Positions 41,091 through 59,626 of a stretch of 64,000 nucleotides of DNA are shown piece after piece. The translations under genes were made by a program, and so were the position numbers. Under the pieces are notes generated by a model. It was given only the letters and a program-made list of their open reading frames with translations, was not told where the DNA came from and searched no databases. This DNA is from a virus (Duplodnaviria > Caudoviricetes). How positions within the stretch are numbered: the first letter of the stretch is position 1; every line of letters begins with the position of its first letter. The DNA lies in IMG/VR virus record IMGVR_UViG_3300032237_000868, positions 25,157 through 89,156 of that record. One strand, written 5' to 3'.

Positions 41091-41479
41091 ATATTGTTAT
41101 TTACTTTACCCCGACAAAACATATGATGTTTTCGTTCATTGGGTTTGCCTTCTGGTATAAATATTTCTCCCAAGTATACTTGATTAACCCAATACATGTC
41201 AAGCTCTTTCATTTTAGAAATGACTTTGGTTTTGACGGAAGGATCAATATCATATTTTACTGATTCTTCATCACACACTCCCAACAAATATGTTTTGGTC
41301 AATGCAGGAGTGCTATCATCGCCAATATACATCTTTTTAGTTTCTGGATGATATGCAAATGCTACATGAGTTACATATTCAAATCCAGCATTTTTTATTT
41401 CAGATACCATCAATATGTTACGATTATTATATCTTACTTTAACATCTGCGTGGGGATCTAGTTCTTCGTAATTGTTCAT
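41087..41479 (-). CDS. Hypothetical protein
   Basis: 130 aa ORF. Confidence 0.65.
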   Translation of the reverse strand: MNNYEELDPHADVKVRYNNRNILMVSEIKNAGFEYVTHVAFAYHPETKKMYIGDDSTPALTKTYLLGVCDEESVKYDIDPSVKTKVISKMKELDMYWVNQVYLGEIFIPEGKPNERKHHMFCRGKVNNNI

Positions 41480-45403: not shown

Positions 45404-45496
45404 TGGCGGAAGCGAAGGGTGCTGCCCCCTCAGATGCTTTTATACATCGGCAGTTTAGCAAACTGCTGTAGAAACCTAACTATCTACGTCACTTCC
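45404..45496 (-). tRNA. tRNA-Ser(GCT)
   Basis: GCAGT-TTGCTAA-ACTGC, long V arm, T loop GGCAGCA, CCA. Confidence 0.85.
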
Positions 45497-45688
45497 ATTT
45501 AGCTGTAAATTAATAGTTTGTTTTGACCTTGCTTCATTAGTTCGTGAAGCTACCATAGCACTGTTTCAGTCGTACCACTTTTCTTGACTTTCACTGCATT
45601 CAAGCATTTACTTTTTTAATGTCAAGATAACCGGCATGATCCTCAATCCGGCATATTCGTATCGGTATATCAATCTACAACTATAAAT

Positions 45689-46040: not shown

Positions 46041-46423
46041 TGGTGGACGTGGGGGAAGTTGAATCCCCGTCTTTAACATTTAAACCATACCAGACTACAT
46101 GTTTATTCACTTTGAATTTATTTGTGGCAATTCTAATAAATGAAAAACAAAATTGCCCTTGAGATTGCAAAATGGTCAACAATAATACACAATCCGATAT
46201 TATCGTTTACTCTGATAAAAGACATTTGTTACACTATCAGATATCCTGCAACAAATGGACTACCAATAAATTAGGCAGCAACAGCGACTTCATCATAAGA
46301 GAAGTCATATGCAATTACATTTTCTTCTGCATTTAGTGTTTTAATGGATTTTTTAGGAAGCCAACCATTATCTTCCACATGCCTAGCATGACCAGAATAT
46401 TAAATCGAAACCAGTACACGCCC
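46041..46423 (-). ncRNA. ssrA: tmRNA, tag (A)EENVIAYDFSYDEVAVAA*
   Basis: GGGCGTG/CACGTCC-ACCA with G3.U70, 5' GGTTTCGA, T arm, tag frame 46330-46271. Confidence 0.95.
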
Positions 46424-46461
46424 GTAAATTGTCAAATAACTTTTTAATGTATTCATAAAAT

Positions 46462-46565
46462 TGGTCAGCGTAGTGGGATTTTCACCTGTCGTATATACAT
46501 CTATTTCTAGCCACACTCATTCTTCCAGTTTTGGAAATGACTCTTTAATGTTGGTCTACACGCTG
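46462..46565 (-). pseudogene. tRNA-like element with expanded anticodon region
   Basis: CAGCGTG/TACGCTG-ACCA acceptor; T stem does not pair. Confidence 0.5.
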
Positions 46566-46576
46566 ATTGTTAAAAT

Positions 46577-46653
46577 TGGCTGGGGATAAGAGAATCGAAC
46601 TCCTATAAGACAGTGGTTCAAAGCCACCCGCGATACCATTACGCTAATCCCCA
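46577..46653 (-). tRNA. tRNA-Gln(TTG)
   Basis: GTGG-CTTTGAA-CCAC, CCA. Confidence 0.9.
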
Positions 46654-46672
46654 ATTAAAATTCCATAAAATA

Positions 46673-46759
46673 TGGTGCCAGCGATTGGATTTGAACCAAT
46701 GATTCCATTGTTTGGATTGCTGTTAATACCTTTATGATCTAGATATGTTTTATTCTGGC
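46673..46759 (-). ncRNA. ACAGCAA-family tRNA-like RNA, un-permuted, CCA-ending
   Basis: GCCAG/CTGGC-ACCA, T arm ATTGG-TTCAAAT-CCAAT, internal TATCT..AGGTA-TTA-ACAGCAA. Confidence 0.6.
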
Positions 46760-46767
46760 GTTGAAAT

Positions 46768-46842
46768 TGGAGCGTCATGTCGGAATCGAACCGACTTGTT
46801 CAACTTGGAAGGATGATGCCTAAGCCAATCGGCCAATGACGC
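46768..46842 (-). tRNA. tRNA-Gly(TCC)
   Basis: CTTCCAA loop, U73, CCA. Confidence 0.93.
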
Positions 46843-46850
46843 ATAAAAAT

Positions 46851-46926
46851 TGGTGGACACAGACGGGACTTGAACCCGTAATATTCTCATTGCAAGTGAG
46901 ATGCATTACATTGATGCTACTGGCCC
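46851..46926 (-). tRNA. tRNA-Ala(TGC)
   Basis: TCTCA-CTTGCAA-TGAGA, G3.U70. Confidence 0.92.
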
Positions 46927-46936
46927 ATTTAAAAAT

Positions 46937-47022
46937 TGGTAGGCATGGAGGGACTTGCACCCCCAAGGACAACAGATCTTAAGTCTATCGCTTCTTCTAA
47001 TTTCGCTTTCGTCCACATGCCC
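46937..47022 (-). tRNA. tRNA-Leu(TAA)
   Basis: CTTAAGA loop, long V arm, T loop TGCAAGT. Confidence 0.88.
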
Positions 47023-47034
47023 ATTATTAAATTG

Positions 47035-47143
47035 ACAAGATACAACTTATTTACAGTTTTGCTTCTGACCTGCATTTTTTTCATGGTCCGCAGACAAGAC
47101 ATTTCATTCCAATATGATTTTTATTTGTTGCTGTGTGTATCTT
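47035..47143 (-). ncRNA. ACAGCAA-family element
   Basis: AAGATACAC-ACAGCAA ... TTGTATCTTGT terminal helix. Confidence 0.6.
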
Positions 47144-48044
47144 AAAATCTATTGTAAAATTCTAAAAATTTATTTATTTCATTTTCTATAAATTTTTTAC
47201 CTGATTTAGTATTTATTGATTTCCAAGGTATTCGATATACTTTCCATGATTGTGACTTTAAATATTCATCTTTTAATTGATCGGATTTTTTTCTATCTTC
47301 AAGAAGATGTTGTTTGCCATCAATTTCCAATGCAATTCTCTTGGATTCTATCGCAAAATCAATAAAATATTTTCCGCAAGGTTCTTCGAACTTATATGAT
47401 ATATTATTGTTTGTCAATACTTTCATGAAAAATAATTCAGCATAAGATGGTTGATTTCTACTTTTCCAACCGGAATGGGTTCCTTCTATAATTCTTTTTA
47501 ATTGTGCTTGTCTGAGTTTTTCTTTATATTCTATACATGCATGTTGACATAATTTTGAACAATAAATAATTTTATTGGATTTTGGTTTAAATTGTTTTTG
47601 ACAAATTTTACAATTTTTGACAATTACTATTTGTTTTTTCTTTTTACGAATTGTGTTTAATCCTCGTTCTGATTGGTAATACAATTTTAATCCGCGTTTT
47701 ATTTTTTCTCTTTGTTCTGAACTAAGAGACGCAGCAAAAAATTTATTAGCGCATTTATGAGAACATGTTTTTTTCTCTCTCGGATGATTTTTTTCAGTCT
47801 CAAACAGCGACTGACATATCGGACATTCTTTTTTAATTTTTTGATATTTACATATATGATTTTTTAATCCAAAATGTGAAATATCGAGTTTAAATTCATA
47901 AATTTTTAATTTAACTTGATTTCTTGATTTTCCATTGTCACAGAAATTAAATTTACGACATATTTCTCCGGTTCCATTGCTTTCTTTTACAACTTGTTTG
48001 AATTTCTCTATATTTGACATTATTTCCGATTCAATCTTATTCAT
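47142..48044 (-). CDS. DUF559/Vsr-like homing endonuclease with CxxC repeats
   Basis: YFIDFAIESKRIALEIDGKQH...D..KD. Confidence 0.88.
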   Translation of the reverse strand: MNKIESEIMSNIEKFKQVVKESNGTGEICRKFNFCDNGKSRNQVKLKIYEFKLDISHFGLKNHICKYQKIKKECPICQSLFETEKNHPREKKTCSHKCANKFFAASLSSEQREKIKRGLKLYYQSERGLNTIRKKKKQIVIVKNCKICQKQFKPKSNKIIYCSKLCQHACIEYKEKLRQAQLKRIIEGTHSGWKSRNQPSYAELFFMKVLTNNNISYKFEEPCGKYFIDFAIESKRIALEIDGKQHLLEDRKKSDQLKDEYLKSQSWKVYRIPWKSINTKSGKKFIENEINKFLEFYNRF

Positions 48045-48107
48045 ATACTAATATATAGTATTGAAATTTATGAAAGTCGGACTTATCTTACTTGAACTAA
48101 GTTAAAA

Positions 48108-48192
48108 TGGTCGGAGTGATAGGACTTGCACCTACAGGCATTACTGTCCAGTTCCCAAAACTGGCCCGCTCCTATTTACGGACTACACTCCG
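48108..48192 (-). tRNA. tRNA-Pro(TGG) with long variable region
   Basis: CCAGT-TTTGGGA-ACTGG, CGGAGTG acceptor, CCA. Confidence 0.85.
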
Positions 48193-48276
48193 ATGTTTAA
48201 AATTAACAATGAACTTACCAACAAGATAGTGTGATAATATACTCTTCTCACAAATTGAAGATCGTCCCTCTAAAAA

Positions 48277-48351
48277 TGGTAGGCGGTGAAGGATTTGAAC
48301 CTCCGACAAACTGAGTGTAAATCAGCTACTCTACCCCTGAGCTAACCGCCC
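48277..48351 (-). tRNA. tRNA-Val(TAC)
   Basis: CTGA-TTTACAC-TCAG, CCA. Confidence 0.95.
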
Positions 48352-48484
48352 ATTTAATAAATTTAAGGATTTGTGAACCTATCGTTGGTAGCCCAATTTT
48401 CATTGAACCGGCGTCTCCGATTTCCCACGGCTCGCCTCTACGGTTTTGATTGTACGCTCAAAATTTCTAAATGCGTTACTTACT

Positions 48485-48512
48485 ATCTTAGCACTTTTTT
48501 CATCGTTGTCAA
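48485..48512 (-). promoter_or_regulatory. Sigma70-type promoter
   Basis: TTGACA-16-TAAGAT. Confidence 0.65.
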
Positions 48513-48618
48513 CAGCTTTGTTGAGGATTCCATTTCTCAGTGTTTCGATTCAACATCGCCGTCTCAACTATGGATACGTCTTACACTATCCGATTCAAAC
48601 GTCAACAACTTTCGCAAA

Positions 48619-48653
48619 CAAAAAACCCGTTGGTTTTTTAGGCCAACGGGTTT
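48619..48653 (-). terminator. Intrinsic terminator
   Basis: AACCCGTTGG/CCAACGGGTT plus T-tract. Confidence 0.85.
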
Positions 48654-48807
48654 AAAATTACGCAAATGTCCGTTGGTTAGCCTAGTACCAAACTAGGTTG
48701 TGACGCAGCACTAGCGAGTGCTGGTCCTACGACGAATAATTGTACGAATGTATTCATTGTAAGAATAAATATTTCCAAAATTTGGAAACGTTCATTTTTT
48801 TTTTCAA

Positions 48808-48936
48808 TTATTTTGCAGATGTCTTTGCAACAGCCTTCTTAACTACACTTGCAGTCTTACTCTTTGCAGGTGTAGTTGCTACCGTCTTGGGTGTCTTAGT
48901 TGCCTTTGCAGTCTTTGTTGTTTTTTGTGTTGCCAT
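48808..48936 (-). CDS. Histone H1-like K/A/T-rich peptide (42 aa, not in track)
   Basis: MATQKTTKTAKATKTPKTVATTPAKSKTASVVKKAVAKTSAK. Confidence 0.7.
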   Translation of the reverse strand: MATQKTTKTAKATKTPKTVATTPAKSKTASVVKKAVAKTSAK

Positions 48937-49022
48937 AATTTATTTTTTCTTTCTATTTTTGTACGATTCATTACGAATCAGATTAATCAATATATAATTG
49001 AAACTATTTTGTTACATTTATT

Positions 49023-49238
49023 TTATTTGCAACATTTGCTTAGTTTCAAAATTTCATCCAAATTTTCTTTTACTCTTATTGGTTGAGTTGAATGATTTTT
49101 TGTGAAAATCAAACTGTGAATTTTAGAAGGCTCAATACTAACAATCATATCCAAATTAATCAATGTTGGTATATAAGTTCTATTGTTAGTTTCTTCGTGC
49201 CCGTGATGTAATACATTTAGTTTAATAAAATGTGCCAT
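49023..49238 (-). CDS. Small FlbD-like hypothetical protein
   Basis: LINLDMIVSIEP...VKENLDEI. Confidence 0.55.
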   Translation of the reverse strand: MAHFIKLNVLHHGHEETNNRTYIPTLINLDMIVSIEPSKIHSLIFTKNHSTQPIRVKENLDEILKLSKCCK

Positions 49239-49252
49239 ACTATGTCCTCATA

Positions 49253-49292
49253 AAAAATAAAATCGGCATCAATTTTTTATTGATGCCGATTG
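49253..49292 (-). terminator. Intrinsic terminator after outer-membrane protein gene
   Basis: AATCGGCATCAA/TTGATGCCGATT. Confidence 0.75.
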
Positions 49293-49308
49293 TTGTTAAT
49301 TTAGTTTT

Positions 49309-49779
49309 TTAGAATCTAACACCAAGACCAAGTGTGTAACGAACAGCGTTATCTGCTACATTATTCAAGCCTATATCATAGTTGACTTGAGCCAAAATAT
49401 ACACATTATCCTTGACGAAAAAGCGATTACCAAGCAATGGTCCAGCATGCCATGTTGGCAAACCATCACCATATCCAAATGATGCACCTGCACCTGCAAA
49501 TGTTTGATTCTGGAATCCAACAACCTTATAATCTAAATTATAAGCAACAAACAATTCGCTTGAGCCGCGAACATTTGGAGTTGCTACGTTGATTCCTTGA
49601 ATGTAACCAACACTGATATTGGTTGTTGCAAACTTTTCAAGACGTAGTGCAGTTCCAAATTCGGAACCGGTATTTTTTTGAGTTTGAGTTGAACCAGTGC
49701 CACCAATGGAAAAATCCAAAGCACCGACATTAAACGTGACTGCCAATACAGCCAACAACGACAATAATAACTTTTTCAT
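49309..49779 (-). CDS. Small outer-membrane beta-barrel protein
   Basis: Signal peptide, alternating beta pattern, C-terminal YTLGLGVRF. Confidence 0.8.
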   Translation of the reverse strand: MKKLLLSLLAVLAVTFNVGALDFSIGGTGSTQTQKNTGSEFGTALRLEKFATTNISVGYIQGINVATPNVRGSSELFVAYNLDYKVVGFQNQTFAGAGASFGYGDGLPTWHAGPLLGNRFFVKDNVYILAQVNYDIGLNNVADNAVRYTLGLGVRF

Positions 49780-49902
49780 AATAATATATATACTTTCTAT
49801 TTTTTGTGTTTTTACTAAGCGAGTTCAGATTTCCAAATCTTCATTTTCTTAGCGTGCATATATACTAGACGAAGAATTCAAAGTCGTCAACTTTTTTCTT
49901 AA

Positions 49903-50466
49903 TCAATCTTTGATTTCAAAATTATCTGTAGGATAACGAGTTACAATATCGTCCAATTTTTCAGCCAATGTAGGTTTATTACTTTCCTCTAATTTTGTAC
50001 GCAAATAATCTCGTAAACTTAATAGATGTTTGCACAATCCGGGGCGCAAATATGGATTGGTTATTTTTGGAAAATTTCCATTGCATTGATTTAAACTGCT
50101 TGTACCCATTGGTCCTGCATCTTTATCATTATTTGCATATGCATATTTGTATCTATAGTCTTCACAGGTGCAATCTACCTTACATGGAATATCAATTGCA
50201 CTTGTATTGATATTTTCTTTTTTAAATGTAATTCTACCTTTGTGGTTAATGCCGTTCGGATTTTCGAGACGCGGTGTAATATGACTAGAATCGCTTTTGT
50301 AACTAAAATTCCAATATTCGTTTGTTGCATCTGCTCGCATTGGAAGTGATTGTGTTCTCATTTTCAATGCGCGTTTTTTTCTTTTTGGCTCCGAAAATTT
50401 CATGAGTTCACTAAATGATAGTATCTCATTTAATACTCGTTTAGCGATATTGGATATTGATATCAT
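49903..50466 (-). CDS. SWIM zinc-finger protein
   Basis: VDCTCEDY...LCKHLL; start moved to MISISNIAKRVLNE. Confidence 0.75.
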   Translation of the reverse strand: MISISNIAKRVLNEILSFSELMKFSEPKRKKRALKMRTQSLPMRADATNEYWNFSYKSDSSHITPRLENPNGINHKGRITFKKENINTSAIDIPCKVDCTCEDYRYKYAYANNDKDAGPMGTSSLNQCNGNFPKITNPYLRPGLCKHLLSLRDYLRTKLEESNKPTLAEKLDDIVTRYPTDNFEIKD

Positions 50467-50479
50467 GTATATAAATATA

Positions 50480-51541
50480 TTACATATCATTAAATGTAAA
50501 AACTTTCAGTGCGCTCGGATCGTTTTTAACTAAATCATTTAAAATTTCATATGGATTTCCATGCACTGGTAGATTTGCCATATCAAATATTCCAGTATCA
50601 TCAAAATTCATATCATCGACAGTATTATGATGAAAATCAAATGTTTTTTGACGTCGATCATAGTACGGAATTGGCTGTGTATGTGTATAAAATGGCTTGG
50701 TCACAATATGAATAAATTGAGGATCATTCTGTGATTCGGAAAAATTAATAATTGCATATACATGACTGTTATAACTGAATCTGTCCCATTGCTCTCCTGC
50801 TAGACCATATTCATCTCCATACGTAAAACACCAAATACTATTACACCCAATTATTTTTATTCCACTCTGACTTGTTACATCTACAATTACAATATTATTT
50901 TTATCATATACAATTTTTAACGAGTCTGAGTTTTTTTCAACTAATTTTTGAAGTTCTTGTTTTGTATATGCCGATCCATGTAACAAATTTATTTTATCTT
51001 CCACGAAATTTGCTACAGCATCGAATGTTGTATGATTACTACTAAATATTTTTTTATAAATTGCCGCTTTTGTTTCTGGAGTTCTATTATCAAGAAGATT
51101 CAGATGTGAATCGATATACAAAATGACATCCTTCAACCGTTGAAATTTATTTTCATTTCGTGGAATAGAAATATCAAACTTTAAATTTCTTTTTGCTATC
51201 GAAGGCCACTTATTAAGTATTTTTATTATTTCTTCTCGGTTTTTTAATAAGCGACGTGTCACAATAACATTCGCTGAATCATACGAAAAACCTTCTATAG
51301 GAAATATATTTTTATTGTAGTTTTTTAACTGAACAACTGCATTCTTCCATTCATTGTCGCTCCATTTTATATGACTTTGTTGATCCTCAATATACAAATC
51401 AGCCAATGTCTTAAAAGTATAATCGCTATTGGATAATTTTTTTAAAAAATTTACAGCAACCTGATCCAATTTATTTGTATTGATATACAATTTTTGTGCA
51501 ATTTGAAAATTTTCAATAATTAATTGTTTTAATGCGACCAT
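50480..51541 (-). CDS. Hypothetical protein, possibly capsid-internal
   Basis: 353 aa; N-terminus MVALKQLIIE. Confidence 0.7.
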   Translation of the reverse strand: MVALKQLIIENFQIAQKLYINTNKLDQVAVNFLKKLSNSDYTFKTLADLYIEDQQSHIKWSDNEWKNAVVQLKNYNKNIFPIEGFSYDSANVIVTRRLLKNREEIIKILNKWPSIAKRNLKFDISIPRNENKFQRLKDVILYIDSHLNLLDNRTPETKAAIYKKIFSSNHTTFDAVANFVEDKINLLHGSAYTKQELQKLVEKNSDSLKIVYDKNNIVIVDVTSQSGIKIIGCNSIWCFTYGDEYGLAGEQWDRFSYNSHVYAIINFSESQNDPQFIHIVTKPFYTHTQPIPYYDRRQKTFDFHHNTVDDMNFDDTGIFDMANLPVHGNPYEILNDLVKNDPSALKVFTFNDM

Positions 51542-51649
51542 ATAAATAAATAGTTAAAAAAAACACTAATATATTTATTTATTAGAGTTATAATTATTTA
51601 TTAATTTATGCTGAATTTGCATCCAGACATTTAGACTATCAATTGAATG

Positions 51650-52132
51650 CTAAACTGGTATCTTTTTGAGCTTGCTAATAGGCAGATTATAACAATCTGC
51701 CTTAAATTTCCATTTGTATGAAGAGCTTTCGTCAATGGTTCCCTTTTTGTTTAATTGAGCATGTTTATAAAAGTAATCTTTACTACAGCCGCCTAATATC
51801 CATGCTCTACTAAAATCTTCCATTACGCGAACAAAAAAATATACGTCACATTTTTGACGTATATTGTATGCGGCAACACTACAATAATAATGTGGTTGCG
51901 GAGGACTTGTGCAAGTTTTTGTTTTTACATCTATTTTGATATCGTCTTTAACAATATCATAATCATATGTATTTTTTGACTTGCCACCAATATATTCATT
52001 TACCAACAATTCTCCCAAAAATCCATAAACGTTTCCTTTGCCTTTTGTAATACTATTATTTAGTATTCCCATTTCTTTGGATTTACGCTTGGCAATTGAA
52101 ATTTGTTTTTTAGTTGGAATTACTTCTATCAT
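51650..52132 (-). CDS. PD-(D/E)XK nuclease-like protein
   Basis: GFLGE...YDIVKDDIKIDVKTK. Confidence 0.65.
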   Translation of the reverse strand: MIEVIPTKKQISIAKRKSKEMGILNNSITKGKGNVYGFLGELLVNEYIGGKSKNTYDYDIVKDDIKIDVKTKTCTSPPQPHYYCSVAAYNIRQKCDVYFFVRVMEDFSRAWILGGCSKDYFYKHAQLNKKGTIDESSSYKWKFKADCYNLPISKLKKIPV

Positions 52133-52241
52133 CTTTATTAAGATACTCTTCTAATCTAGTATTAGATTCCACAAAATCTAGAAATTGATAATGCTACAAA
52201 AATATACGAGCATATCACTATGATTCTCATTATTATATATT

Positions 52242-52601
52242 TCATTTCTTTTTCTTGGACTTTTTGAGTTTATCTTGATTTTTAATCTCACCGGCGCATT
52301 GTTTACCTAGTTCCGTCAATCCAAACTCTGGTTTTCCTTCATCATCAAATCCAGTAATTTTAAGTATTCCATCTTTTACTAACTTTTCTACAGTGGTTTT
52401 TACTTCCTCCAACGCAATCATATTATATATTTCAATAGCGTCTTCTCTGGAAGCTGCCTCATGATCCATAATATATTTTATTGAAGCTTCATACTCACGT
52501 TCTTTAACTTCTTCATCACTAATATCAAAATCTAACTTTGAACAATGGTCTAGTAGTTGATCAATGGTGCCGGTGAATGTTGTGTTGATGTTTTCTTTCA
52601 T
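52242..52601 (-). CDS. Hypothetical protein
   Basis: Start moved to MKENINTT; the upstream extension is a tRNA remnant. Confidence 0.65.
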   Translation of the reverse strand: MKENINTTFTGTIDQLLDHCSKLDFDISDEEVKEREYEASIKYIMDHEAASREDAIEIYNMIALEEVKTTVEKLVKDGILKITGFDDEGKPEFGLTELGKQCAGEIKNQDKLKKSKKKK

Positions 52602-52609
52602 ATAGAGAT

Positions 52610-52637
52610 TGGTGCGTGTGACAGGATTTGAACCTGC
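52610..52637 (-). pseudogene. tRNA 3' remnant (T arm + acceptor strand + CCA)
   Basis: GCAGGTTCAAATCCTGTCACACGCACCA with no matching 5' strand. Confidence 0.7.
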
Positions 52638-52918
52638 AACAGTTCGATATAGTTGCTTCATTCAGATCATCAATAATGATATTTACATTTTTGAATTTTA
52701 AACTTCCTTTGGAAGGCGAATTATCAGAAGTTTCTTTTGTGGTTTAACCAACATTGGTATTGACATGATTAACATAATAGGTTATTCCTTTTGTTTTTAA
52801 TATCCACATTGGGATATTAGTATCAGTCAAATGAGCTTTGTTGAAGTGAAATACAACTTCTTTGCAATTCTATAATGTAGTCATATGATGTATCCTTATT
52901 ACGTGCAATAGCATAGAT

Positions 52919-53095
52919 TCACTCTGCGCGATTGTCAATCTTTTTCTGTGCCTCTATCCAATCATTTTTGTGATTTTTAAGCCAATCAATAAGTGCCGAT
53001 TCAAATCCTACGTCGTGATTTTGCCTTTCACTTTCTATCCATTTATGTTTCATTATTTCTTCACGAATAAAAATAAATTTTTGATATAAAGACAT
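52919..53095 (-). CDS. DUF4032-like small protein (58 aa, not in track)
   Basis: REEIMKHKWIESERQNHDVGFESALIDWLKNH. Confidence 0.65.
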   Translation of the reverse strand: MSLYQKFIFIREEIMKHKWIESERQNHDVGFESALIDWLKNHKNDWIEAQKKIDNRAE

Positions 53096-53116
53096 AGACT
53101 TTTTATATATATTATT

Positions 53117-53338
53117 ATGAAAGCTAAAATATTACTTTTAATTACAATGGCATTTCTTTTTGGATGCAACAACAAAAAAATCATTAGTATTGATGGTCAC
53201 ACATACACTTTGATTCGTGCAGGGCAAACAAATGCTAATGGTATTAATGATATAGAATTATGGGAACGTAAAGGAGTTACAAATAGATATTATACACCGT
53301 CAATTGATGGTAAATTTATGCATCCAATTATGAAATAA
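53117..53338 (+). CDS. Small lipoprotein
   Basis: Lipobox-like LFGC after hydrophobic helix. Confidence 0.55.
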   Translation: MKAKILLLITMAFLFGCNNKKIISIDGHTYTLIRAGQTNANGINDIELWERKGVTNRYYTPSIDGKFMHPIMK

Positions 53339-54056
53339 TGTCAGAATCTGTGATTTCTTCAAGCGCATGATAAATTACAGATTTTTTATCATCATATTTT
53401 GTTGACAAAAAATCTATTTTATCTAATTTATCGCCAACATTACGCTTGTTATTATAACGCTCATAATAATGATTGTAATACAATTCTTTCTCTATTTTGT
53501 CTAAGCGACTTTCCAATTCTCCATATAAAGGAGTGTAGTGTGTAAGATAATATGGTTTTGTAACTTCTTTTAACATCCACGGAAATCGAAAATAATAATG
53601 TGGACGAAAATGTTTTATACATTCCTGAAATAATTTTTTTTCACATGAACAGTTATACAAACTGGAATGATACCACAGATATTTTTCTATTGATTTAATT
53701 TTTTCAATATCAGATGCTCTTTTTGCTTCTGTATAATAAAATTTGAAACGTGGATCTGTTGCTGATTTCAAATATGCGTGTTTCTCAACACTCGTTTTTT
53801 TAGTGCGAGTGATAAAATCTTTGTTGGAATGATACGCTTTCTTTTGCCCAAGAAAATTTATTACCTCTAAAATTTTTGGATAATCACCGCGTTGCTTAAC
53901 ATCATCACGCAATTCCAAACTACGAACATAACCATGATGTATCGGTATATCCAATTTAATTGGAACAATATTGTATTTTTGTCGGCGCAACGTATCTGCT
54001 TCTCGAATCAAAGCCAACGCTCGTTTTTTCTCCTTTTCTTTTTTATGTAGGTCCAT
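53328..54056 (-). CDS. Hypothetical basic protein
   Basis: 242 aa ORF. Confidence 0.7.
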   Translation of the reverse strand: MDLHKKEKEKKRALALIREADTLRRQKYNIVPIKLDIPIHHGYVRSLELRDDVKQRGDYPKILEVINFLGQKKAYHSNKDFITRTKKTSVEKHAYLKSATDPRFKFYYTEAKRASDIEKIKSIEKYLWYHSSLYNCSCEKKLFQECIKHFRPHYYFRFPWMLKEVTKPYYLTHYTPLYGELESRLDKIEKELYYNHYYERYNNKRNVGDKLDKIDFLSTKYDDKKSVIYHALEEITDSDIIS

Positions 54057-54058
54057 AA

Positions 54059-54286
54059 TCAGTCACTTTTAACAACAGATGAAAAATTACTTAATTCAAC
54101 TGTTTTTGATTCTTTATTACTTGCTTCTACATGCTTGCGAATATATCTCAAAAACAATAATGCTTTGTCCTCTGCAAACAAAGTTGCTTTTCCAATATCC
54201 TCAAGCGGCACTGGAAATTCAAATCCACATTCAGTCGAATAAATATCTAATAATAATAACAGATATAATTGATATAAAGTGAGCAT
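54059..54286 (-). CDS. Hypothetical phage protein
   Basis: GFEFPVPLEDIGKATLFAEDKALLFLRYIRKH; start uncertain. Confidence 0.55.
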   Translation of the reverse strand: MLTLYQLYLLLLLDIYSTECGFEFPVPLEDIGKATLFAEDKALLFLRYIRKHVEASNKESKTVELSNFSSVVKSD

Positions 54287-54362
54287 CGTGTTGGAATCGA
54301 ACCAACTCTGTGTTACCACTACGGTTTTGCAGACCGCAACCTTCCCATTTGGCTAACGATGC
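54282..54362 (-). tRNA. tRNA-Cys(GCA) with long variable arm, CCA not encoded
   Basis: GCGGT-CTGCAAA-ACCGT, V arm GTG-GTAA-CAC, U73. Confidence 0.85.
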
Positions 54363-54465
54363 ATAAAACTAACATATAGCTATTTGACTGACGCTGTTGT
54401 GCTTCGTCAAATATACATTCTCAAGAAACAGCAAAATTAAGAATTACTATATGTTTGTTTAAAAA

Positions 54466-54541
54466 TGGCTGGCACTATAGGACTTGAACCTATAATCTTT
54501 CGGGTCAGAGCCGATTGCGTTATCCATTACGCTAAGTGCCA
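54466..54541 (-). tRNA. tRNA-Gln(CTG)
   Basis: TCGG-CTCTGAC-CCGA, CCA. Confidence 0.92.
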
Positions 54542-54545
54542 ATTA

Positions 54546-54619
54546 TGGAGCCAATTATCAGAATCGAACTGATATTTATTGTTTACGAAACAATCGTTCT
54601 ACCATTGAACTAAATTGGC
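54546..54619 (-). tRNA. tRNA-Thr(CGT)
   Basis: ATTGT-TTCGTAA-ACAAT, CCA. Confidence 0.92.
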
Positions 54620-54750
54620 ATTGGTGGGTTCTTTCCCTCTGTCATTCAGCATGGTGCGAGATTTCAACCTCTACCATTAACGGAGCGAATTGCCGCTAGA
54701 TACTATAAATTGGGGTGTTTTTTGAACTTTGAGAAACTATTTATTAGTAG

Positions 54751-55473
54751 ATGAAACCGCTTTACACCCCAAACGAATTCAATGAAGCAAAATCTCGTAA
54801 TACGCTTCCTTTCGAATGTGAATATTGTCGTTCTACATTTTATAGCACGAAAAACGAAATTCAAAAATCTATTAAGAGACAAGAAGAAGGAAATCGTCGT
54901 CGTAACGATTTGAAATATTGCTCCAAAAAATGCAGTGGACTTTCAAAAATAACAGGATTGCATCTTCATTGTGAACAATGCAAAAAGACAATTTACAAAC
55001 AACGCCGAAACATTTCAAAAAACAGACATCATTTTTGTTCATCTTCATGCGCTGCTACATATAGCAACACACACAAAACAACTGGTTATCGTCGTTCCAA
55101 GCTTGAGATTTGGATCGAAGAACAACTCACCAAGAAATATCCAACCCTCCCAATTCGCTATAACAAAACTGATGTCATAAATGCGGAGTTGGACATATTC
55201 ATCCCCTCATTGAAACTGGCGTTTGAGTTGAATGGTATTTTTCATTATGAAGATATTTATGGGACACTCAATAAAATTCAAAAAAACGATTCAAAAAAAT
55301 TCCAAAAATGTATCGAATTAGGAATCGGATTGTGTGTAATCGATGTATCACATCAAAATCGATTCACTGAAAAATCCAGTGCACAGTTTTTGGATATTAT
55401 CTATAATATTATAGATCAAAAAATGGGGTGGTATATGGGTAACGATCCCATTCCGCAAGCTTCACAGGCTTGA
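54751..55473 (+). CDS. Vsr-like homing endonuclease with CxxC repeats, antisense to tRNA array
   Basis: ELDIFIPSLKLAFELNGIFHY; YCSKKC, FCSSSC. Confidence 0.85.
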   Translation: MKPLYTPNEFNEAKSRNTLPFECEYCRSTFYSTKNEIQKSIKRQEEGNRRRNDLKYCSKKCSGLSKITGLHLHCEQCKKTIYKQRRNISKNRHHFCSSSCAATYSNTHKTTGYRRSKLEIWIEEQLTKKYPTLPIRYNKTDVINAELDIFIPSLKLAFELNGIFHYEDIYGTLNKIQKNDSKKFQKCIELGIGLCVIDVSHQNRFTEKSSAQFLDIIYNIIDQKMGWYMGNDPIPQASQA

Positions 55474-55500
55474 ATGTTAAACCTTCACACTCATACCACC
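55424..55500 (-). tRNA. tRNA-His(GTG)
   Basis: CAAGC-CTGTGAA-GCTTG, G-1:C73, T loop ATCGTTA. Confidence 0.88.
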
Positions 55501-55509
55501 ATTATAACT

Positions 55510-55586
55510 TGGAGCTTTATTTCAGACTTGCACTGAATTCTCAAGTTTACCGAACTTGTGTAATAAACTACTTATACGAATGAAAC
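55510..55586 (-). tRNA. tRNA-Thr(GGT)
   Basis: CAAGT-TCGGTAA-ACTTG; one acceptor mismatch. Confidence 0.75.
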
Positions 55587-55605
55587 ATAACTGTCAATCT
55601 AAAAA

Positions 55606-55680
55606 CGGCACGGAGTTAGGGTGCTACCCCCTACACAGAATCTTTTGGAGAGATTCTTACACAGCTAACGTGTCCTCCGC
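55606..55680 (-). tRNA. tRNA-Trp(CCA), atypical
   Basis: AATCT-CTCCAAA-AGATT; T loop GGTAGCA; ends GCCG. Confidence 0.65.
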
Positions 55681-55692
55681 ATTGCATTAAAA

Positions 55693-55769
55693 TGGTAGAG
55701 CCACGGGGAATTGAACCCACGATCTGAACATTGAAAGTGTTCTATCCTAAGCCATTAGACGATGACTCC
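55693..55769 (-). tRNA. tRNA-Glu(TTC)
   Basis: GAACA-CTTTCAA-TGTTC, CCA. Confidence 0.92.
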
Positions 55770-55780
55770 ATTATAAAAAT

Positions 55781-55864
55781 TGGTAGGCGCGGTAGGATTT
55801 GAACCTGCAATTTCAGTTCCAATTACTACCTAGCGGTTTCGAAGACCGTGGAGACTACGCACCC
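55781..55864 (-). tRNA. D-armless tRNA-Arg(TCG)-like RNA
   Basis: Acceptor, only 8 nt before CGGT-CTTCGAA-ACCG, 24-nt post-anticodon region, normal T arm, CCA. Confidence 0.65.
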
Positions 55865-55872
55865 ATTGTAAA

Positions 55873-56181
55873 TTAATTTTTTACTATCTGAACACTTGGA
55901 TATATATTTCTTTCTGTTTGACTGCGTATCGTTTCAAAATATGAAGCCATATGATTCAGCACATTTTCGGCCATTGGTTCTAACCAATCATTCGGTTTAT
56001 ATTCTGTTACGCTTATTCCACCACGAACCGCTTTTAGGTTGCCTGATTCAAATTGTTTTTTTAGAAACGCCATCAATTCATTTTTTAAAACTCGTCGATG
56101 TTCTATTACAAAAATTTCATTCAATTGATTTTGTAGTGTTAAATTTCTATGTTTAATAAACGTTTCTTCAAAAAGATTCAT
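55873..56181 (-). CDS. Hypothetical protein
   Basis: 102 aa ORF with late-type motif upstream. Confidence 0.65.
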   Translation of the reverse strand: MNLFEETFIKHRNLTLQNQLNEIFVIEHRRVLKNELMAFLKKQFESGNLKAVRGGISVTEYKPNDWLEPMAENVLNHMASYFETIRSQTERNIYPSVQIVKN

Positions 56182-56334
56182 ATGTTAATAAATATTAATT
56201 GAGTTTGTAAAATACATATTAATTTTTTTTAAAATGGTTTGTTAGTAGGTATTAATTATAAATATTTTTTTTATTCGTCTATATATACAAATTTAATTAT
56301 AGCAAAACATTAAAAAATTTAACTATTCTTTTTT

Positions 56335-56411
56335 TGGTGCTTATGCTGAGATTTGAACTCAGAACTTTTCTTTCGTAGAGAAATATGATTATCCAATTTC
56401 ACCACACAAGC
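56335..56411 (-). tRNA. tRNA-Arg(ACG)
   Basis: TTTCT-CTACGAA-AGAAA, CCA. Confidence 0.88.
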
Positions 56412-56428
56412 ATGTATGTTTTTAAATT

Positions 56429-56507
56429 TGGCGAATCGGGTGGGAGTCGAACCCACATTAGTCCAGTTATGCACCAATCGCTTAGAAGGCGCGGCCAATA
56501 CCGATTC
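56429..56507 (-). tRNA. D-armless tRNA-Arg(TCT)-like RNA
   Basis: GAATCGG/CCGATTC-GCCA, CGC-CTTCTAA-GCG directly after a short linker, long post-anticodon region. Confidence 0.65.
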
Positions 56508-56519
56508 ATTTTTAAAATT

Positions 56520-56647
56520 ACGAGATGCATTTTTTACTTTTATACTCTACCATTGAGCTATCGCGGCATAACGAGCCGCGAGTGAGATTCGAACTCACAA
56601 CCTTTGATTTACATATCAATTAGTATATTTGTTGCTGTATACATCTC
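56520..56647 (-). ncRNA. Circularly permuted tRNA-like RNA 1 (ACAGCAA family)
   Basis: Order: outer helix-ACAGCAA-anticodon-like arm-T arm-TCGCGGC-loop-GCCGCGA-D arm-outer helix. Confidence 0.85.
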
Positions 56648-56652
56648 TAAAT

Positions 56653-56725
56653 TGGTAGTTCTACTCAGACTTGAACTGAGAAAAATCGCTAATCAGGCAA
56701 TTATGTTACATTACATCATAGAACC
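56653..56725 (-). tRNA. tRNA-Ile(GAT)
   Basis: TTGC-CTGATTA-GCGA, CCA. Confidence 0.8.
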
Positions 56726-56732
56726 ATTAAAA

Positions 56733-56853
56733 ACTAGATACATTTTTCAGGGTTTTGCCATTAAACTATCGCGGCGTCAATAATGCCGCGAGTGGGATTC
56801 GAACACCACATCACTCTCTTCGTAGGAGAATTTTTTGTTGCTGTATGTATCTT
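56733..56853 (-). ncRNA. Circularly permuted tRNA-like RNA 2 (ACAGCAA family), ACG loop
   Basis: Same order as copy 1; AGATACAT/ATGTATCT; TTCTC-CTACGAA-GAGAG. Confidence 0.85.
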
Positions 56854-56857
56854 AAAT

Positions 56858-56935
56858 TGGTTGTCCCGGTCGGACTTGAACCGACGACCCATGCGTTATC
56901 AACACATTGCTCTAAACCAACTGAGCTACGAGACA
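56858..56935 (-). tRNA. tRNA-Ile(GAT), second copy
   Basis: ATGTG-TTGATAA-CGCAT, CCA. Confidence 0.9.
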
Positions 56936-56943
56936 ATTAAAAA

Positions 56944-57021
56944 TGGCGAGGGTGGCCGGATTTGAACCGAGCGATCTACACAGTGACAGTGTGTTATGTT
57001 GACCAACTACACCACACCCCC
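56944..57021 (-). tRNA. tRNA-Asp(GTC)
   Basis: ACACA-CTGTCAC-TGTGT, CCA. Confidence 0.92.
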
Positions 57022-57029
57022 ATTAAAAT

Positions 57030-57106
57030 TGGTGGAATCACCGGGACTTGAACCCGGATCACGATATTAAGAGTATCGTAGTCTAATCCAATTGACTTAT
57101 GATTCC
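57030..57106 (-). tRNA. tRNA-Lys(CTT)
   Basis: CGATA-CTCTTAA-TATCG, CCA. Confidence 0.94.
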
Positions 57107-57257
57107 ATATTAAATTATCCAACACCGTTGCAACGATGTTAGCACCAACATGATAGTTTGCCAAAGCTTATTCGGTTATTATTCGTCGTCAATAATAATC
57201 CCGCTATCTCTTTTACCACACGACCTGCTTCATAGAGTTGGTGTTAAAGTTATTTTT

Positions 57258-57455
57258 TTATCCAAACCACAAAACACACCATTCATGGATTTCATTTCTT
57301 CTAGTTCCCTTGAGTTTCAAGAGTTTTTCATACAAACTTTTGATGTATTTATCCACATTTTGTTTTGTTAATGAACTATTCAACAATTCACCTTTATGCA
57401 TGGCATATTCTTTACAACACTGTTGATATGTTTTGTTTTTATAAAAATTTGGCAT
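57258..57455 (-). CDS. Small hypothetical protein
   Basis: Start moved to MPNFYKNK. Confidence 0.5.
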   Translation of the reverse strand: MPNFYKNKTYQQCCKEYAMHKGELLNSSLTKQNVDKYIKSLYEKLLKLKGTRRNEIHEWCVLWFG

Positions 57456-57472
57456 ATAACTTTTTATGAAAT

Positions 57473-57549
57473 TGGAGTCCAAGGTTGGATTTGAACCAAC
57501 GACCCGTAGGGTTTTTTTGCCCCACGCTCTTTCTCTGAGTTACTTGGAC
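57473..57549 (-). tRNA. Atypical tRNA with poly-A anticodon loop (Cys-like body)
   Basis: Perfect acceptor and T arm, U73, GTGGGG-CAAAAAAA-CCCTAC. Confidence 0.55.
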
Positions 57550-57560
57550 ATTATAAAAAT

Positions 57561-57638
57561 TGGTGGCCCCGGTGGGACTTGAACCCACAACCTTCTCCTT
57601 AAAAGGGAGTTACTCTAAACCAATTGAGTTACAAGGCC
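57561..57638 (-). tRNA. tRNA-Lys(TTT)
   Basis: CTCC-CTTTTAA-GGAG, CCA. Confidence 0.95.
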
Positions 57639-57719
57639 ATAAATTATACTGGATTTCACGAATCGTTCCACATTTACTTGTCTAGAATTTTTCAATGCGT
57701 CTACCAGTCAGCCAATAAT

Positions 57720-57790
57720 CTATTGCGTGGGGATCGAACCCATATCTTCGGCTCTATGCCGACGCTTTTGCCCTATAAGCTACTACAATG
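57720..57790 (-). pseudogene. tRNA-like element, loop CATAGAG, no CCA
   Basis: D arm GCTT/AAGC, TCGG/CCGA, T arm intact, weak acceptor. Confidence 0.5.
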
Positions 57791-57900
57791 TTATTGCTAA
57801 TTAAATCCTTCGCCGCACCGCAACACTGCGGATCTATAGATATACTCCGATTCATCTATATTAACTTCAAGCGATATTGAAGGCGACTACTACTAAAAAT

Positions 57901-57974
57901 TGGCTCCCAAGGAAGGACTCGCACCTCCACAAGAATGTTAACAGCATTCCGTGCTACTTTGACACTACTCGGGA
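57901..57974 (-). tRNA. tRNA-Asn(GTT)
   Basis: GAATG-CTGTTAA-CATTC, T loop TGCGAGT. Confidence 0.9.
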
Positions 57975-58143
57975 ATAATAAACTACTTTTTCTTTTTGTC
58001 AAGCAATTGTTTTAATCGCTTTTTACCATACTCACTAAGTTCTATTGAATTACTCAATTGTAATAGAGCATCCAATTCACTAGTTAATGGATTTTTTAAT
58101 CGACCAGCTAATGTTGGCCATTTACTTTTTTGTTTCATAAAAA

Positions 58144-58219
58144 TGGCCCGGTAGGTTGGTATCGCACCAACGTCTCAAGCTCTTCAGGCTTGCGCTAATA
58201 CTGTCTCAGCTACTACCAG
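58144..58219 (-). tRNA. tRNA-Phe(GAA)
   Basis: CAAGC-CTGAAGA-GCTTG, T loop TGCGATA. Confidence 0.85.
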
Positions 58220-58230
58220 ATTTTAAAATA

Positions 58231-58297
58231 ACGAGATACTTTTTCTTTTTCACAAGAATAGGTGTGAATGTTGAATTTTTATTGCTGTATGTATCTC
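58231..58297 (-). ncRNA. Minimal ACAGCAA-family element
   Basis: GAGATAC(AT)-ACAGCAA ... TTCACA/TGTGAA ... GTATCTCGT. Confidence 0.65.
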
Positions 58298-58302
58298 TAA
58301 AA

Positions 58303-58907
58303 TTATTCTCTTCCAACATCCATACTATTTGATGAACCGGGAATTACAGGTTCAACAGTATATGTACTTTCTGGTTTAAGAATTACTTCTTTTTGAATTT
58401 CTGCAAAATTACTGTCGGCACCAACAATTCTTCTGAATGCCACCATTGCATTTGTATCATGTAACCATTCATAATGAAACAACATCAAACTTTGATCATA
58501 TGTATTTTTGTAATCAGATATCCAGTTTTATTTGGAGACCAAAATGCTACATATTTACTTATATCATTTTTTATGTCGGCAAATGCGATTGCGATATTTT
58601 TATCTTCACTAAATGAAACATATGTTATTTCACTCTGATGCTTCACTTTGCCATCATGTACTTCATCAGGAGATAATAATATTCCTCTATACAATGGCTT
58701 GATTGATTTCGGAAATTTTTTTCTTAAAACTGCGGCAATCAAATCAATCGACTGTGAATTTTTTCTATAATACCGATCTGGATTACGACCACTCAAAGCA
58801 TTGAATATAAAATTCCAATATATTTTCACTGCTTCCATAAGCGCAGCTTGGTCCATTGCTTCGTTTAGTACGAATTTATTTTTGTCTACATGATTAAATA
58901 TTTTCAT
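58303..58907 (-). pseudogene. R-S-E type ADP-ribosyltransferase split by a -1 frameshift
   Basis: LYRGI and VSFS in the first frame, QKEVIL in the second; shift at A5 run near 58505. Confidence 0.65.
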
Positions 58908-58961
58908 GTAGTATAAATAGTCACGATACAATAGTATATGTGCAAATATTTCTATTTGCAT

Positions 58962-59028
58962 ACTAACGTATTTTCATACGCTTCGTGGAATCGAACCACA
59001 GAATCCATTCTATTGCTGTATGTATCGT
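58962..59028 (-). ncRNA. ACAGCAA-family element with T arm only
   Basis: ACGATACAT-ACAGCAA ... TGTGG-TTCGATT-CCACG. Confidence 0.6.
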
Positions 59029-59036
59029 ATTAAAAT

Positions 59037-59122
59037 TGGTGCGCCGTGAGTGAGTCGAACACCCCGAGCCGTTAAGCAAGTGATTTACAGTCACTCCCGC
59101 TACCCCTACGGTATAACGACGC
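59037..59122 (-). tRNA. tRNA-Tyr(GTA)
   Basis: AGTGA-CTGTAAA-TCACT, long V arm, CCA. Confidence 0.92.
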
Positions 59123-59138
59123 ATTATTAAAAATTGTG

Positions 59139-59369
59139 TCAGTCAAAACTAAAAATTAGATAATTTGATTTTCCTATTCGCAATAGTATATATTTTTCAA
59201 ATAGTAAATCAGATTTTTCTATGATTCTATTTTCCGTTGTTTTGATATTGTTGATGTATAAGCCGCCGCCTTTTAACAAACGCCGTGCTTCAGATTTACT
59301 AATATCATAACAATCCGAAAATAATGTAATTGTGTCTAATATTTCTAATGTTTCTAATGTCTCTTCCAT
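59139..59369 (-). CDS. Stand-alone S4 domain resembling the TyrRS C-terminus
   Basis: SKSEARRLLKGGGLYINN...DLLFEKYILLRIGKSNY; start moved to MEETLE. Confidence 0.85.
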   Translation of the reverse strand: MEETLETLEILDTITLFSDCYDISKSEARRLLKGGGLYINNIKTTENRIIEKSDLLFEKYILLRIGKSNYLIFSFD

Positions 59370-59375
59370 AAAGCA

Positions 59376-59464
59376 TGGTCGTAGATGGAGGAGTTGAACC
59401 ACTTGCCAGCCGCCCTATTTATTGATGGCAACTATTTTACAGACAGCCATAGGGAACATCTACG
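59376..59464 (-). tRNA. D-armless tRNA-Tyr(GTA)-like RNA
   Basis: CGTAGATG/CATCTACG-ACCA, GCTGT-CTGTAAA-ATAGT nested in CCCTAT/ATAGGG. Confidence 0.6.
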
Positions 59465-59471
59465 TTGAAAT

Positions 59472-59530
59472 TGGCGGGAAAATATTAAAAGCTGTTAAAA
59501 TCTAAATCAAGATTTATGTTTTCTTTTCCC
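59472..59530 (-). ncRNA. Mini ACAGC-family element with acceptor stem and CCA
   Basis: GGGAAAA/TTTTCCC-GCCA enclosing AAAACAT-AAATCT/AGATTT-TAACAGC. Confidence 0.55.
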
Positions 59531-59539
59531 ATTAAAAAT

Positions 59540-59616
59540 TGGCTCAGGAGTGGGATTTGATACCCTATCTTTCGTATTAACCATACGACATGCTACATGT
59601 TATACAACACTCCCAA
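59540..59616 (-). pseudogene. Degenerate tRNA-Asn(GTT)
   Basis: TCGTA-TGGTTAA-TACGA (G33), irregular T arm. Confidence 0.6.
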
Positions 59617-59626
59617 ATTTTGAAAT

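Follow-up and report, generated by a model that had tools for sequence, protein, structure and literature searches.

One hairpin handle in two topologies: tRNA-shaped small RNA genes of a giant phage as candidate partners of a Ro60-like ring protein

The viral record IMGVR_UViG_3300032237_000868 of IMG/VR (Duplodnaviria; Caudoviricetes) belongs to a giant phage for which only distant cultured relatives were found. The stretch analysed here, in the following called the window, comprises the 3' 64 kb of this 89-kb record (positions 25,157 to 89,156), which is estimated to be 31% complete. Between 45.4 and 60.1 kb the minus strand of the window carries a dense RNA operon that consists of 24 transfer RNAs (tRNAs) called by ARAGORN, a transfer-messenger RNA (tmRNA) and about a dozen other units; almost all units of the operon finish with CCA, followed by an AUUU spacer. 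Within it lie two small RNA genes, E1 (46759-46673) and E2 (59530-59472), in which a hairpin-bearing module, in the following referred to as the handle, is combined with parts of a tRNA. The same handle occurs elsewhere in the operon and in hundreds of other phages, where it makes up both ends of the RNA and is linked to genes of a protein with a predicted Ro60 fold.

E1 is an 87-nt tRNA-shaped RNA gene (46673-46759, minus strand), in which a closed handle and a T arm precede an encoded ACCA terminus. From 5' to 3' its first half reads GCCAGAA, UAAAAC, AUAUCU, the loop AGAUCAUAA, AGGUAU and UAACAGCAA, while its second half comprises a mini-hairpin UCCA/UGGA, the T arm AUUGG-UUCAAAU-CCAAU (46684-46700), and the acceptor 3' strand CGCUGGC with the discriminator A and CCA (46673-46683; partner strand 46753-46759). 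The handle (46717-46754), identified by its match to the covariance model described below, is composed of an A-rich flank, the stem AUAUCU/AGGUAU around a 9-nt loop, a loop G at position 8, and UAACAGCAA. RNAfold (-15.6 kcal/mol, z-score -2.5) predicts the acceptor, an A-rich linker, a 6-bp hairpin, the 4-bp mini-hairpin and a standard T arm; a D arm is absent, and the other hairpin loop, AACAA or AAACAAU, has no U33. In the window the acceptor consists of five pairs and two mismatches, and in the relatives L001, L002 and L004 the 5' strand reads GCCAGUG, which gives a full acceptor of seven pairs. E1 was found in only four IMG/VR contigs. Its bases 14-87 (74 nt) are 100% identical in L001, L002 and L004, compared with just 86-89% for the neighbouring protein; the word AAAACAU, common to E1 and E2, is not kept in these relatives, and the AAAU found there is the consensus of the handle family. 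A match to the tmRNA_permuted model that touches E1 (46271-46730, 31.6 bits) was rejected as an artefact, which joins the T arm and CCA of E1 to the adjoining true tmRNA.

E2 (59472-59530, minus strand) is a smaller gene of 59 nt, in which an acceptor-like helix of 7 bp (GGGAAAA/UUUUCCC) encloses a closed handle and is followed by GCCA. It reads, from 5' to 3', GGGAAAA, GAAAACAU, AAAUCU, the loop UGAUUU, AGAUUU, UAACAGCUU, UUAAUA, UUUUCCC, G and CCA, of which GAAAACAU, the stem AAAUCU/AGAUUU, its 6-nt loop UGAUUU and UAACAGCUU form the handle (59489-59523, again matched by the model). The predicted fold (RNAfold, -10.1 kcal/mol, z-score -2.3) is a perfect 7-bp helix around an A-rich linker, the 6-bp hairpin and UAACAGCUU; both D arm and T arm are absent. 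E2 was found in only two IMG/VR contigs. A homologue at L005:962-1020 is identical at 57 of 59 positions, next to a protein that is 49% identical, and a second lies at L001:275-333.

Some neighbours of the two genes deserve mention. Between tRNA-Asn and E2 there is an unannotated, CCA-ended tRNA-like unit (59531-59618, minus strand) with an odd T loop, GGG-UAUCAAAU-CCC; it is kept in L005 and missing in L001, where E2 directly succeeds tRNA-Asn. On the other side of E2, before tRNA-Tyr, lies a stand-alone open reading frame (ORF) of 87 amino acids (59139-59402, minus strand) whose sole match is to the S4-like domain at the C terminus of tyrosyl-tRNA synthetase (PF22421, E 1e-8); a search for relatives with this protein as bait found none. 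Furthermore, two D-armless, CCA-ended Arg-like RNAs (56432-56508 and 55781-55870, minus strand) carry AAYUGGA a few bases ahead of the T arm, and E1 has AAUGGAA at the matching site; a D-armless body is therefore in repeated use by this phage.

The relatives of E1 and E2 retain 93-100% identity, compared with 49-89% for the neighbouring proteins, and both genes keep the array convention of CCA followed by the AUUU spacer. Since they are far better conserved than the proteins around them, E1 and E2 are under strong constraint. Neither is a tRNA in the usual sense: a 7-bp acceptor with discriminator and CCA is present in E2 and, with seven pairs only in the relatives, in E1, and both lack a D arm as well as a 5-bp anticodon arm with a 7-nt U33 loop. 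ARAGORN made no call for either gene, the Rfam tRNA model RF00005 (cut-off 29 bits) gave no match to E 10 over either, and Rfam as a whole assigned nothing to them, neither at gathering scores nor at E up to 10. An earlier note on this DNA had described the layout of both elements from the letters alone. This layout is confirmed on the minus strand, with RNAfold returning the same structures, and so is its observation that the handle helix is here closed by a loop while the acceptor is open, the reverse of the permuted copies treated below.

A pattern derived from E1 (TAACAGCWW, 8-30 nt, T loop) matched more than 118 viral contigs, and these matches display two architectures, open and closed, in many unrelated phages. 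In the closed form AAAU, a hairpin and UAACAGCAA lie inside RNAs with an Rfam tRNA match over 106-122 nt, and the acceptor, D arm and T arm of these tRNA hosts are intact. In the open form the CCA of a tRNA is directly followed by (U)AGGAUAC-UAACAGCAA, a cargo, and AAAAU-GUAUCCU-GUU. Rfam 15 contains no family for the handle, and a search of the literature found no description of it.

A covariance model (R1) was trained on twenty-four closed handles that had passed a hairpin filter; they come from unrelated phage contigs, and E1, E2, their relatives and the whole of this lineage were excluded. Among these modules UAACAGC and the G right after the 5' strand of the 7-bp helix are invariant or nearly so, and all six pairs of the modelled stem covary (6/6, with 100% of cells paired). 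In the 64-kb window R1 ranks E2 first (32.7 bits, E 8e-5) and E1 second (32.1 bits, E 1e-4); the next match has 15 bits, E1 and E2 stand about 17 bits above all other sites, and they are the sole significant matches in the window and in the full 89-kb record. A bare TAACAGCAA at window position 8284 scores just 13.4 bits, and other bare TAACAGC words about 13 or less. The words AACAGC (34 matches in the window vs 24 expected) and AAAACATA were rejected as signals on their own, being not, or barely, enriched.

Five open copies are found in the window, all on the minus strand. Their terminal helix pairs (G/A)AGAUAC with GUAUCU(C/U), the 5' strand continues into AYACAGCAA, and in three of the five a run of A precedes the 3' strand. 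The cargo of two copies comprises a T arm, an acceptor closed by a loop, and a D arm. In the first of these (56517-56650, fold z-score -4.1) the terminal stem GAGAUGU/GCAUCUC and AUACAGCAA surround this cargo in a layout resembling that of the bacterial Y RNA YrlA; it reaches 30.1 bits against the Rfam YrlA model (RF02553) over the tRNA-like core, below the gathering score of 69, and is the best open copy in this respect, while E1 and E2 do not match that model at all. The second (56727-56853) also has a complete anticodon arm, UUCUC-CUACGAA-GAGAG. In the open copies the closed acceptors are devoid of CCA, which every other gene of the array encodes. A copy without tRNA parts (58223-58299; homologues at L001:631 and L005:1226) consists, by sequence and fold, of GAGAUAC-AUACAGCAA, a small cargo and AAAAA-GUAUCUC. 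The remaining two are UACGAUAC-AUACAGCAA, a T-arm-like hairpin and GUAUCGUG, with a 3' flank that is not A-rich (58922-59029), and AAGAUACA-CACAGCAA followed by UGUAUCUU-G around a non-tRNA cargo (47036-47144; homologues in L001, L002, L004 and L005).

The two forms were compared by matching flanks and pairs with a script, the covariance model being built from the closed form only. A script search gave 32 array-borne open candidates. The 3' strand is immediately preceded by AAAU or AAAAN in 18 of them (3% in the background), the innermost pair is C-G in 21, and in most copies the seventh pair is followed by a G. Because flanks, innermost C-G and post-strand G are common to both, the open and closed forms are circular permutations of one motif, with the consensus AAAU, a helix of seven pairs without fixed sequence, an unpaired G immediately behind its 5' strand, and UAACAGCAA. 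E1 and E2 belong to it by their R1 scores and by the G at position 8 in each. The earlier note had read the two topologies as one ring-shaped RNA architecture encoded with two different break points and had suggested a circular or ligated intermediate or a permutation at the gene level. By their R1 scores E1 and E2 resemble the closed modules more than chance would allow, and the flanks and pairs in common with the permuted copies bear out a gene-level circular permutation. The circular or ligated RNA, by contrast, is not supported: there is no feature that would call for it, free-standing modules without tRNA parts exist as well, and E1 and E2 minus the module yield no tRNA.

The handle is strongly linked to one protein family. 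DUF2828 (PF11443) was found in 27 of 41 handle-bearing viral records (10 of the 11 that are at least 90% complete), compared with one of 29 control records, i.e. records that the same pattern had matched by chance (0 of 6 complete ones), and none of 14 cellular control genomes. Handle and DUF2828 gene are separated by a median of 736 nt, and by 2 kb or less in 19 of the 27 records; at 9 of 12 DUF2828 loci closed handles are found no more than 1.5 kb from the gene, on its strand as judged by coordinates. The rule known for Y RNA genes, a position within about 4 kb of the Ro60 gene on the same strand, thus describes the handle family generally. Canonical TROVE of Pfam was considered as a general handle partner and rejected, occurring in just 1 of 39 handle-bearing records. 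Several observations on these loci stand apart. In two complete phages of 86-88 kb the DUF2828 gene (G019:77077-77799 and G020:73029-73751) is interrupted by one in-frame TGA, which may reflect recoding, an alternative genetic code or inactivation of the gene. In Cronobacter phage GAP32 (L143, NC_019401 104503-107451) the DUF2828 gene directly follows an Rnl2-type RNA ligase gene, a neighbourhood that recalls the rsr-yrl-rtcBA RNA-repair operon of Salmonella. A separate class of tRNA-like RNAs of 106-109 nt (L016:10621-10729 on the minus strand, L063:29-137 and about 15 loci), AGUCAGG...GAGAC-UAACAGC-UAAUGGCAC..., contains TAACAGC without the hairpin, and no DUF2828 gene was found in G009 and G016, two records bearing it.

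The handle-linked protein has about 500 amino acids and comprises DUF2828 and a DUF7788/VWA_2 (vWA) domain. A sequence search against the PDB gave no match. An AlphaFold2 model (predicted local distance difference test, pLDDT, 82.5; predicted template modelling score, pTM, 0.81) was compared with the PDB by Foldseek, and the top 12 matches are all full-length Ro60/TROVE proteins (E 2e-7 to 2e-5), led by those of Xenopus, human, Thermus phage phiLo and Deinococcus (Rsr). VIA-align superposes the model on Xenopus Ro60 with Z 21.6 and a root-mean-square deviation of 3.9 A over 378 residues, while proteins with only a vWA domain reach Z 10.7 at most. The DUF2828 + vWA protein is thus predicted to adopt the Ro60 fold, a likeness that, given the empty sequence search of the PDB, is visible only by fold.

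The family is widespread: tblastn matched 705 phage records of GenBank, and Felix-O1-like, Listeria, Staphylococcus, Mycobacterium and Vibrio phages are among them. Its Ro-likeness is already present in some GenBank annotations: gp54 of Mycobacterium phage Itos is annotated as 'Ro-like RNA binding protein', and the next 370-nt gap holds three open handles (MN703410, about 40890-41160), of which one encloses T and D arms and a closed acceptor; Rfam found nothing in this gap. In Citrobacter phage Michonne the DUF2828 gene (gp140) stands at the head of a tRNA array with handles in its gaps, which read AGACCAA-WUACAGCAA and then AAAU-UUGGUCU-GG. A literature search on DUF2828 yielded nothing relevant.

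The genes and their folds, a conserved handle that is the same in two topologies, and the linkage of this handle in the genome to a protein of predicted Ro60 fold lead us to regard E1 and E2 as probable Y-RNA-like partner RNAs in tRNA topology, i.e. small-RNA genes whose handle docks a Ro60-like ring protein. We infer that the handle is the docking site of the phage's DUF2828 + vWA protein, by analogy with the Ro60-Y RNA particles described in animals, in some bacteria and in a few phages. In the open form the RNA ends pair into the handle helix, with the cargo inside; this cargo ranges from none at all through an anticodon arm to a tRNA body whose acceptor is closed by a loop, and the layout corresponds to the YrlA Y RNAs of bacteria. 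E1 and E2 are the same arrangement turned inside out, with the handle helix capped by a loop and the ends forming an acceptor-type helix with encoded NCCA. Since such ends are those of all tRNAs of the array, processing by tRNA enzymes is expected, and E1 and E2 would be released by RNase P and 3' trimming like the neighbouring tRNAs. Docked on the ring with a free CCA, E1 would display the top half of a tRNA (acceptor and T arm) and E2 a bare acceptor helix, and this tRNA-like part may recruit or decoy another factor, comparable to the factor to which known Y RNAs tether Ro60.

Several points weigh against this interpretation. No match to DUF2828, DUF7788, TROVE or the A3 profile was found in the 89-kb record or in its relatives G001 and G002, fragments that, like the record itself, are each at most 31% complete, so that for this phage the partner protein is only predicted. 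The absence as such says little, because the pattern search finds the array-borne handles of the two largest complete phages at distances of 113 and 199 kb from the DUF2828 gene. The acceptor of E1 is imperfect in the window. The R1 score is in part shared by construction, since the training set was hairpin-filtered and found via the TAACAGC pattern, and the handle (AAAU, helix, UAACAGCAA) is unlike the Ro-binding helix of Rfam YrlA. The missing gene also favours an alternative in which the handle is real and common and serves another partner or role, such as a host Rsr/Ro60, a different RNA-binding protein, or a signal for processing or stability of the array; GAP32, which has no handle within 3 kb of its DUF2828 gene, points the same way, and gene linkage is a correlation only. 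The co-occurrence, however, is strong and specific, with tight adjacency over unrelated phages, and the scarcity of canonical TROVE among handle-bearing records speaks against it as well; we consider this alternative unlikely. Far less can be said for decaying tRNA pseudogenes or chance look-alikes with a coincidental ACAGC. The silence of ARAGORN and of the Rfam tRNA model, the imperfect acceptor of E1 in the window with its two mismatches, and the barely enriched AACAGC word would agree with such an origin, yet the lead of E1 and E2 over every other site under R1, their identity of 93-100% in relatives next to proteins at 49-89%, the retained CCA and spacer, and the full 7-bp acceptor in the relatives render it very improbable.

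E1 and E2 could also be intron-containing tRNAs from which the handle is excised, the open copies being permuted tRNAs that mature via circles or ligation. For some tRNAs of other phages this reading stays alive, and there it counts against ours, because the closed handle sits within the 5' strand of the anticodon stem of complete tRNA bodies and its deletion restores a perfect 5-bp anticodon stem with a 7-nt loop (Asn GUU at L036:362-483 on the minus strand and at L007:1052-1169; Pro UGG at L036:149-268 on the minus strand); L021:2147-2181 and L075:501-534 belong to the same group. The open copy at 56853-56727, moreover, holds every part of a tRNA, including an ACG anticodon arm, and Lak megaphages carry unexplained tRNA inserts (PMC6784885). 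E1 minus its handle, however, has no D arm and forms a 3-bp hairpin with a loop without U33, and E2 is reduced to a helix, so neither could form a tRNA. Handles also stand free without exons (58299-58223; L001:631), and the closed acceptors of the open copies have no CCA, unlike the other genes of the array. The flanks of the handle, read from the sequence, are single-stranded stretches of 4-8 nt and at least 9 nt, not the 3-nt bulges of a bulge-helix-bulge. RtcB and EndA were each found in none of 22 handle-bearing phage records (11 of them complete). The earlier note had recommended looking for RtcB/Rnl ligases in the genome; in the 89-kb record no RtcB, Rnl1, Rnl2 or splicing endonuclease was found, the Rnl1 result being uninformative because that search matched in no control genome either. 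The Lak 'introns' were rejected as the same insert, lying at position 37/38, with no AACAGC in Table S6 of PMC6784885. For E1 and E2 we therefore hold excision to be quite improbable, and a gene-level permutation would require no RNA circle, by analogy with two-piece tmRNA.

If E1 and E2 are partner RNAs of a Ro60-like ring, they belong to a second, very large branch of the Ro60 type, in which DUF2828 proteins go with an RNA handle of their own that is missing from Rfam, and this handle has been joined to tRNA bodies in either circular permutation, in some cases both within a single genome. This suggests that the system acts on, or imitates, tRNA ends. A more specific possibility, doubtful as it stands, is that the closed-handle RNAs are adaptors for which the free CCA end matters: a host enzyme or defence nuclease directed at tRNAs would charge the tRNA top half or acceptor helix, repair its CCA or seize it while it is tethered to the ring. 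Such adaptors would be interchangeable tRNA-shaped baits, capped and uncapped, that steer or disarm the tRNA-handling machinery, and the handle a portable graft, inserted by evolution into tRNA bodies in either topology. For annotation, over-long or 'intron-containing' tRNAs of phages may be handle RNAs.

Other units of the array are less directly connected with these questions. Three more CCA-ended units (46462-46575, 46937-47030 and 45404-45680, minus strand) are not called as tRNAs, and among them one has a UAA anticodon-like loop and one the acceptor UCAGCGU/ACGCUGA. The Rfam model finds a tRNA missed by ARAGORN at 57476-57549 (minus strand, 38.9 bits) with the anticodon loop CAAAAAA. Two protein genes inside the tRNA array, a DUF559/endonuclease-like ORF (47142-48044, minus strand) and a zinc-finger ORF (54751-55473, plus strand), look like passengers of the homing-endonuclease type.

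Among known systems, a tRNA-like RNA encoded in two circularly permuted gene orders is familiar from tmRNA, with its one-piece and two-piece forms (RF00023 and RF04321), of which the permuted one matures by cutting of a loop, without an RNA circle. The handle RNAs share this arrangement and differ from tmRNA in being another RNA with another function. Permuted and intron-bearing tRNA genes of Cyanidioschyzon merolae and archaea depend on a bulge-helix-bulge, a splicing endonuclease and a ligase. Like these genes and the 'enigmatic introns' of Lak phages (PMC6784885), the present RNAs show tRNA bodies broken or permuted near the anticodon arm, whereas their junction is a conserved handle that also occurs free-standing, and no such enzymes were found in the records searched.

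The closest resemblance is with Ro60 and the YrlA/Yrl RNAs, which are encoded beside the Ro60 gene on the same strand and by which PNPase is tethered (PMC4201824, PMC12135203). As in YrlA (RF02553; PMC4201824), a tRNA-like domain is combined with a helix for protein docking, the RNAs of the handle family lie beside a gene of Ro60 fold on its strand, and small forms without a tRNA domain coexist, as YrlB does. The topology of E1 and E2 is opposite to that of YrlA, with the docking helix closed and the acceptor open with CCA, while the open copies 56650-56517 and 56853-56727 do match it; moreover, the partner family is DUF2828 and not Pfam TROVE. Thermus phage phiLo provides a phage ring protein with adjoining partner RNAs, Ro60 with Yrl1/Yrl2 (PMC12135203; PDB 9KOP, 9L5Y), whose complex engages the PNPase of the host (PMC12135203), and its Ro60 structure is one of those that the DUF2828 model matches best in fold (VIA-align, Z 15.2). 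It differs in having canonical TROVE and RNAs recognised by a CGAA motif, with no ACAGCAA handle or tRNA topology reported. Two topologies are already present among Y RNAs: in Yrn1 of Deinococcus radiodurans the T and D arms are oriented unlike those of YrlA relative to the RNA ends, and the stem-loop between them occupies the position of the anticodon arm, not that of the acceptor (PMC4201824). Yrn1 and YrlA have been treated as independent inventions in different organisms (PMC4201824), whereas here one handle occurs in two topologies within one genome, and E1 and E2 encode the CCA.

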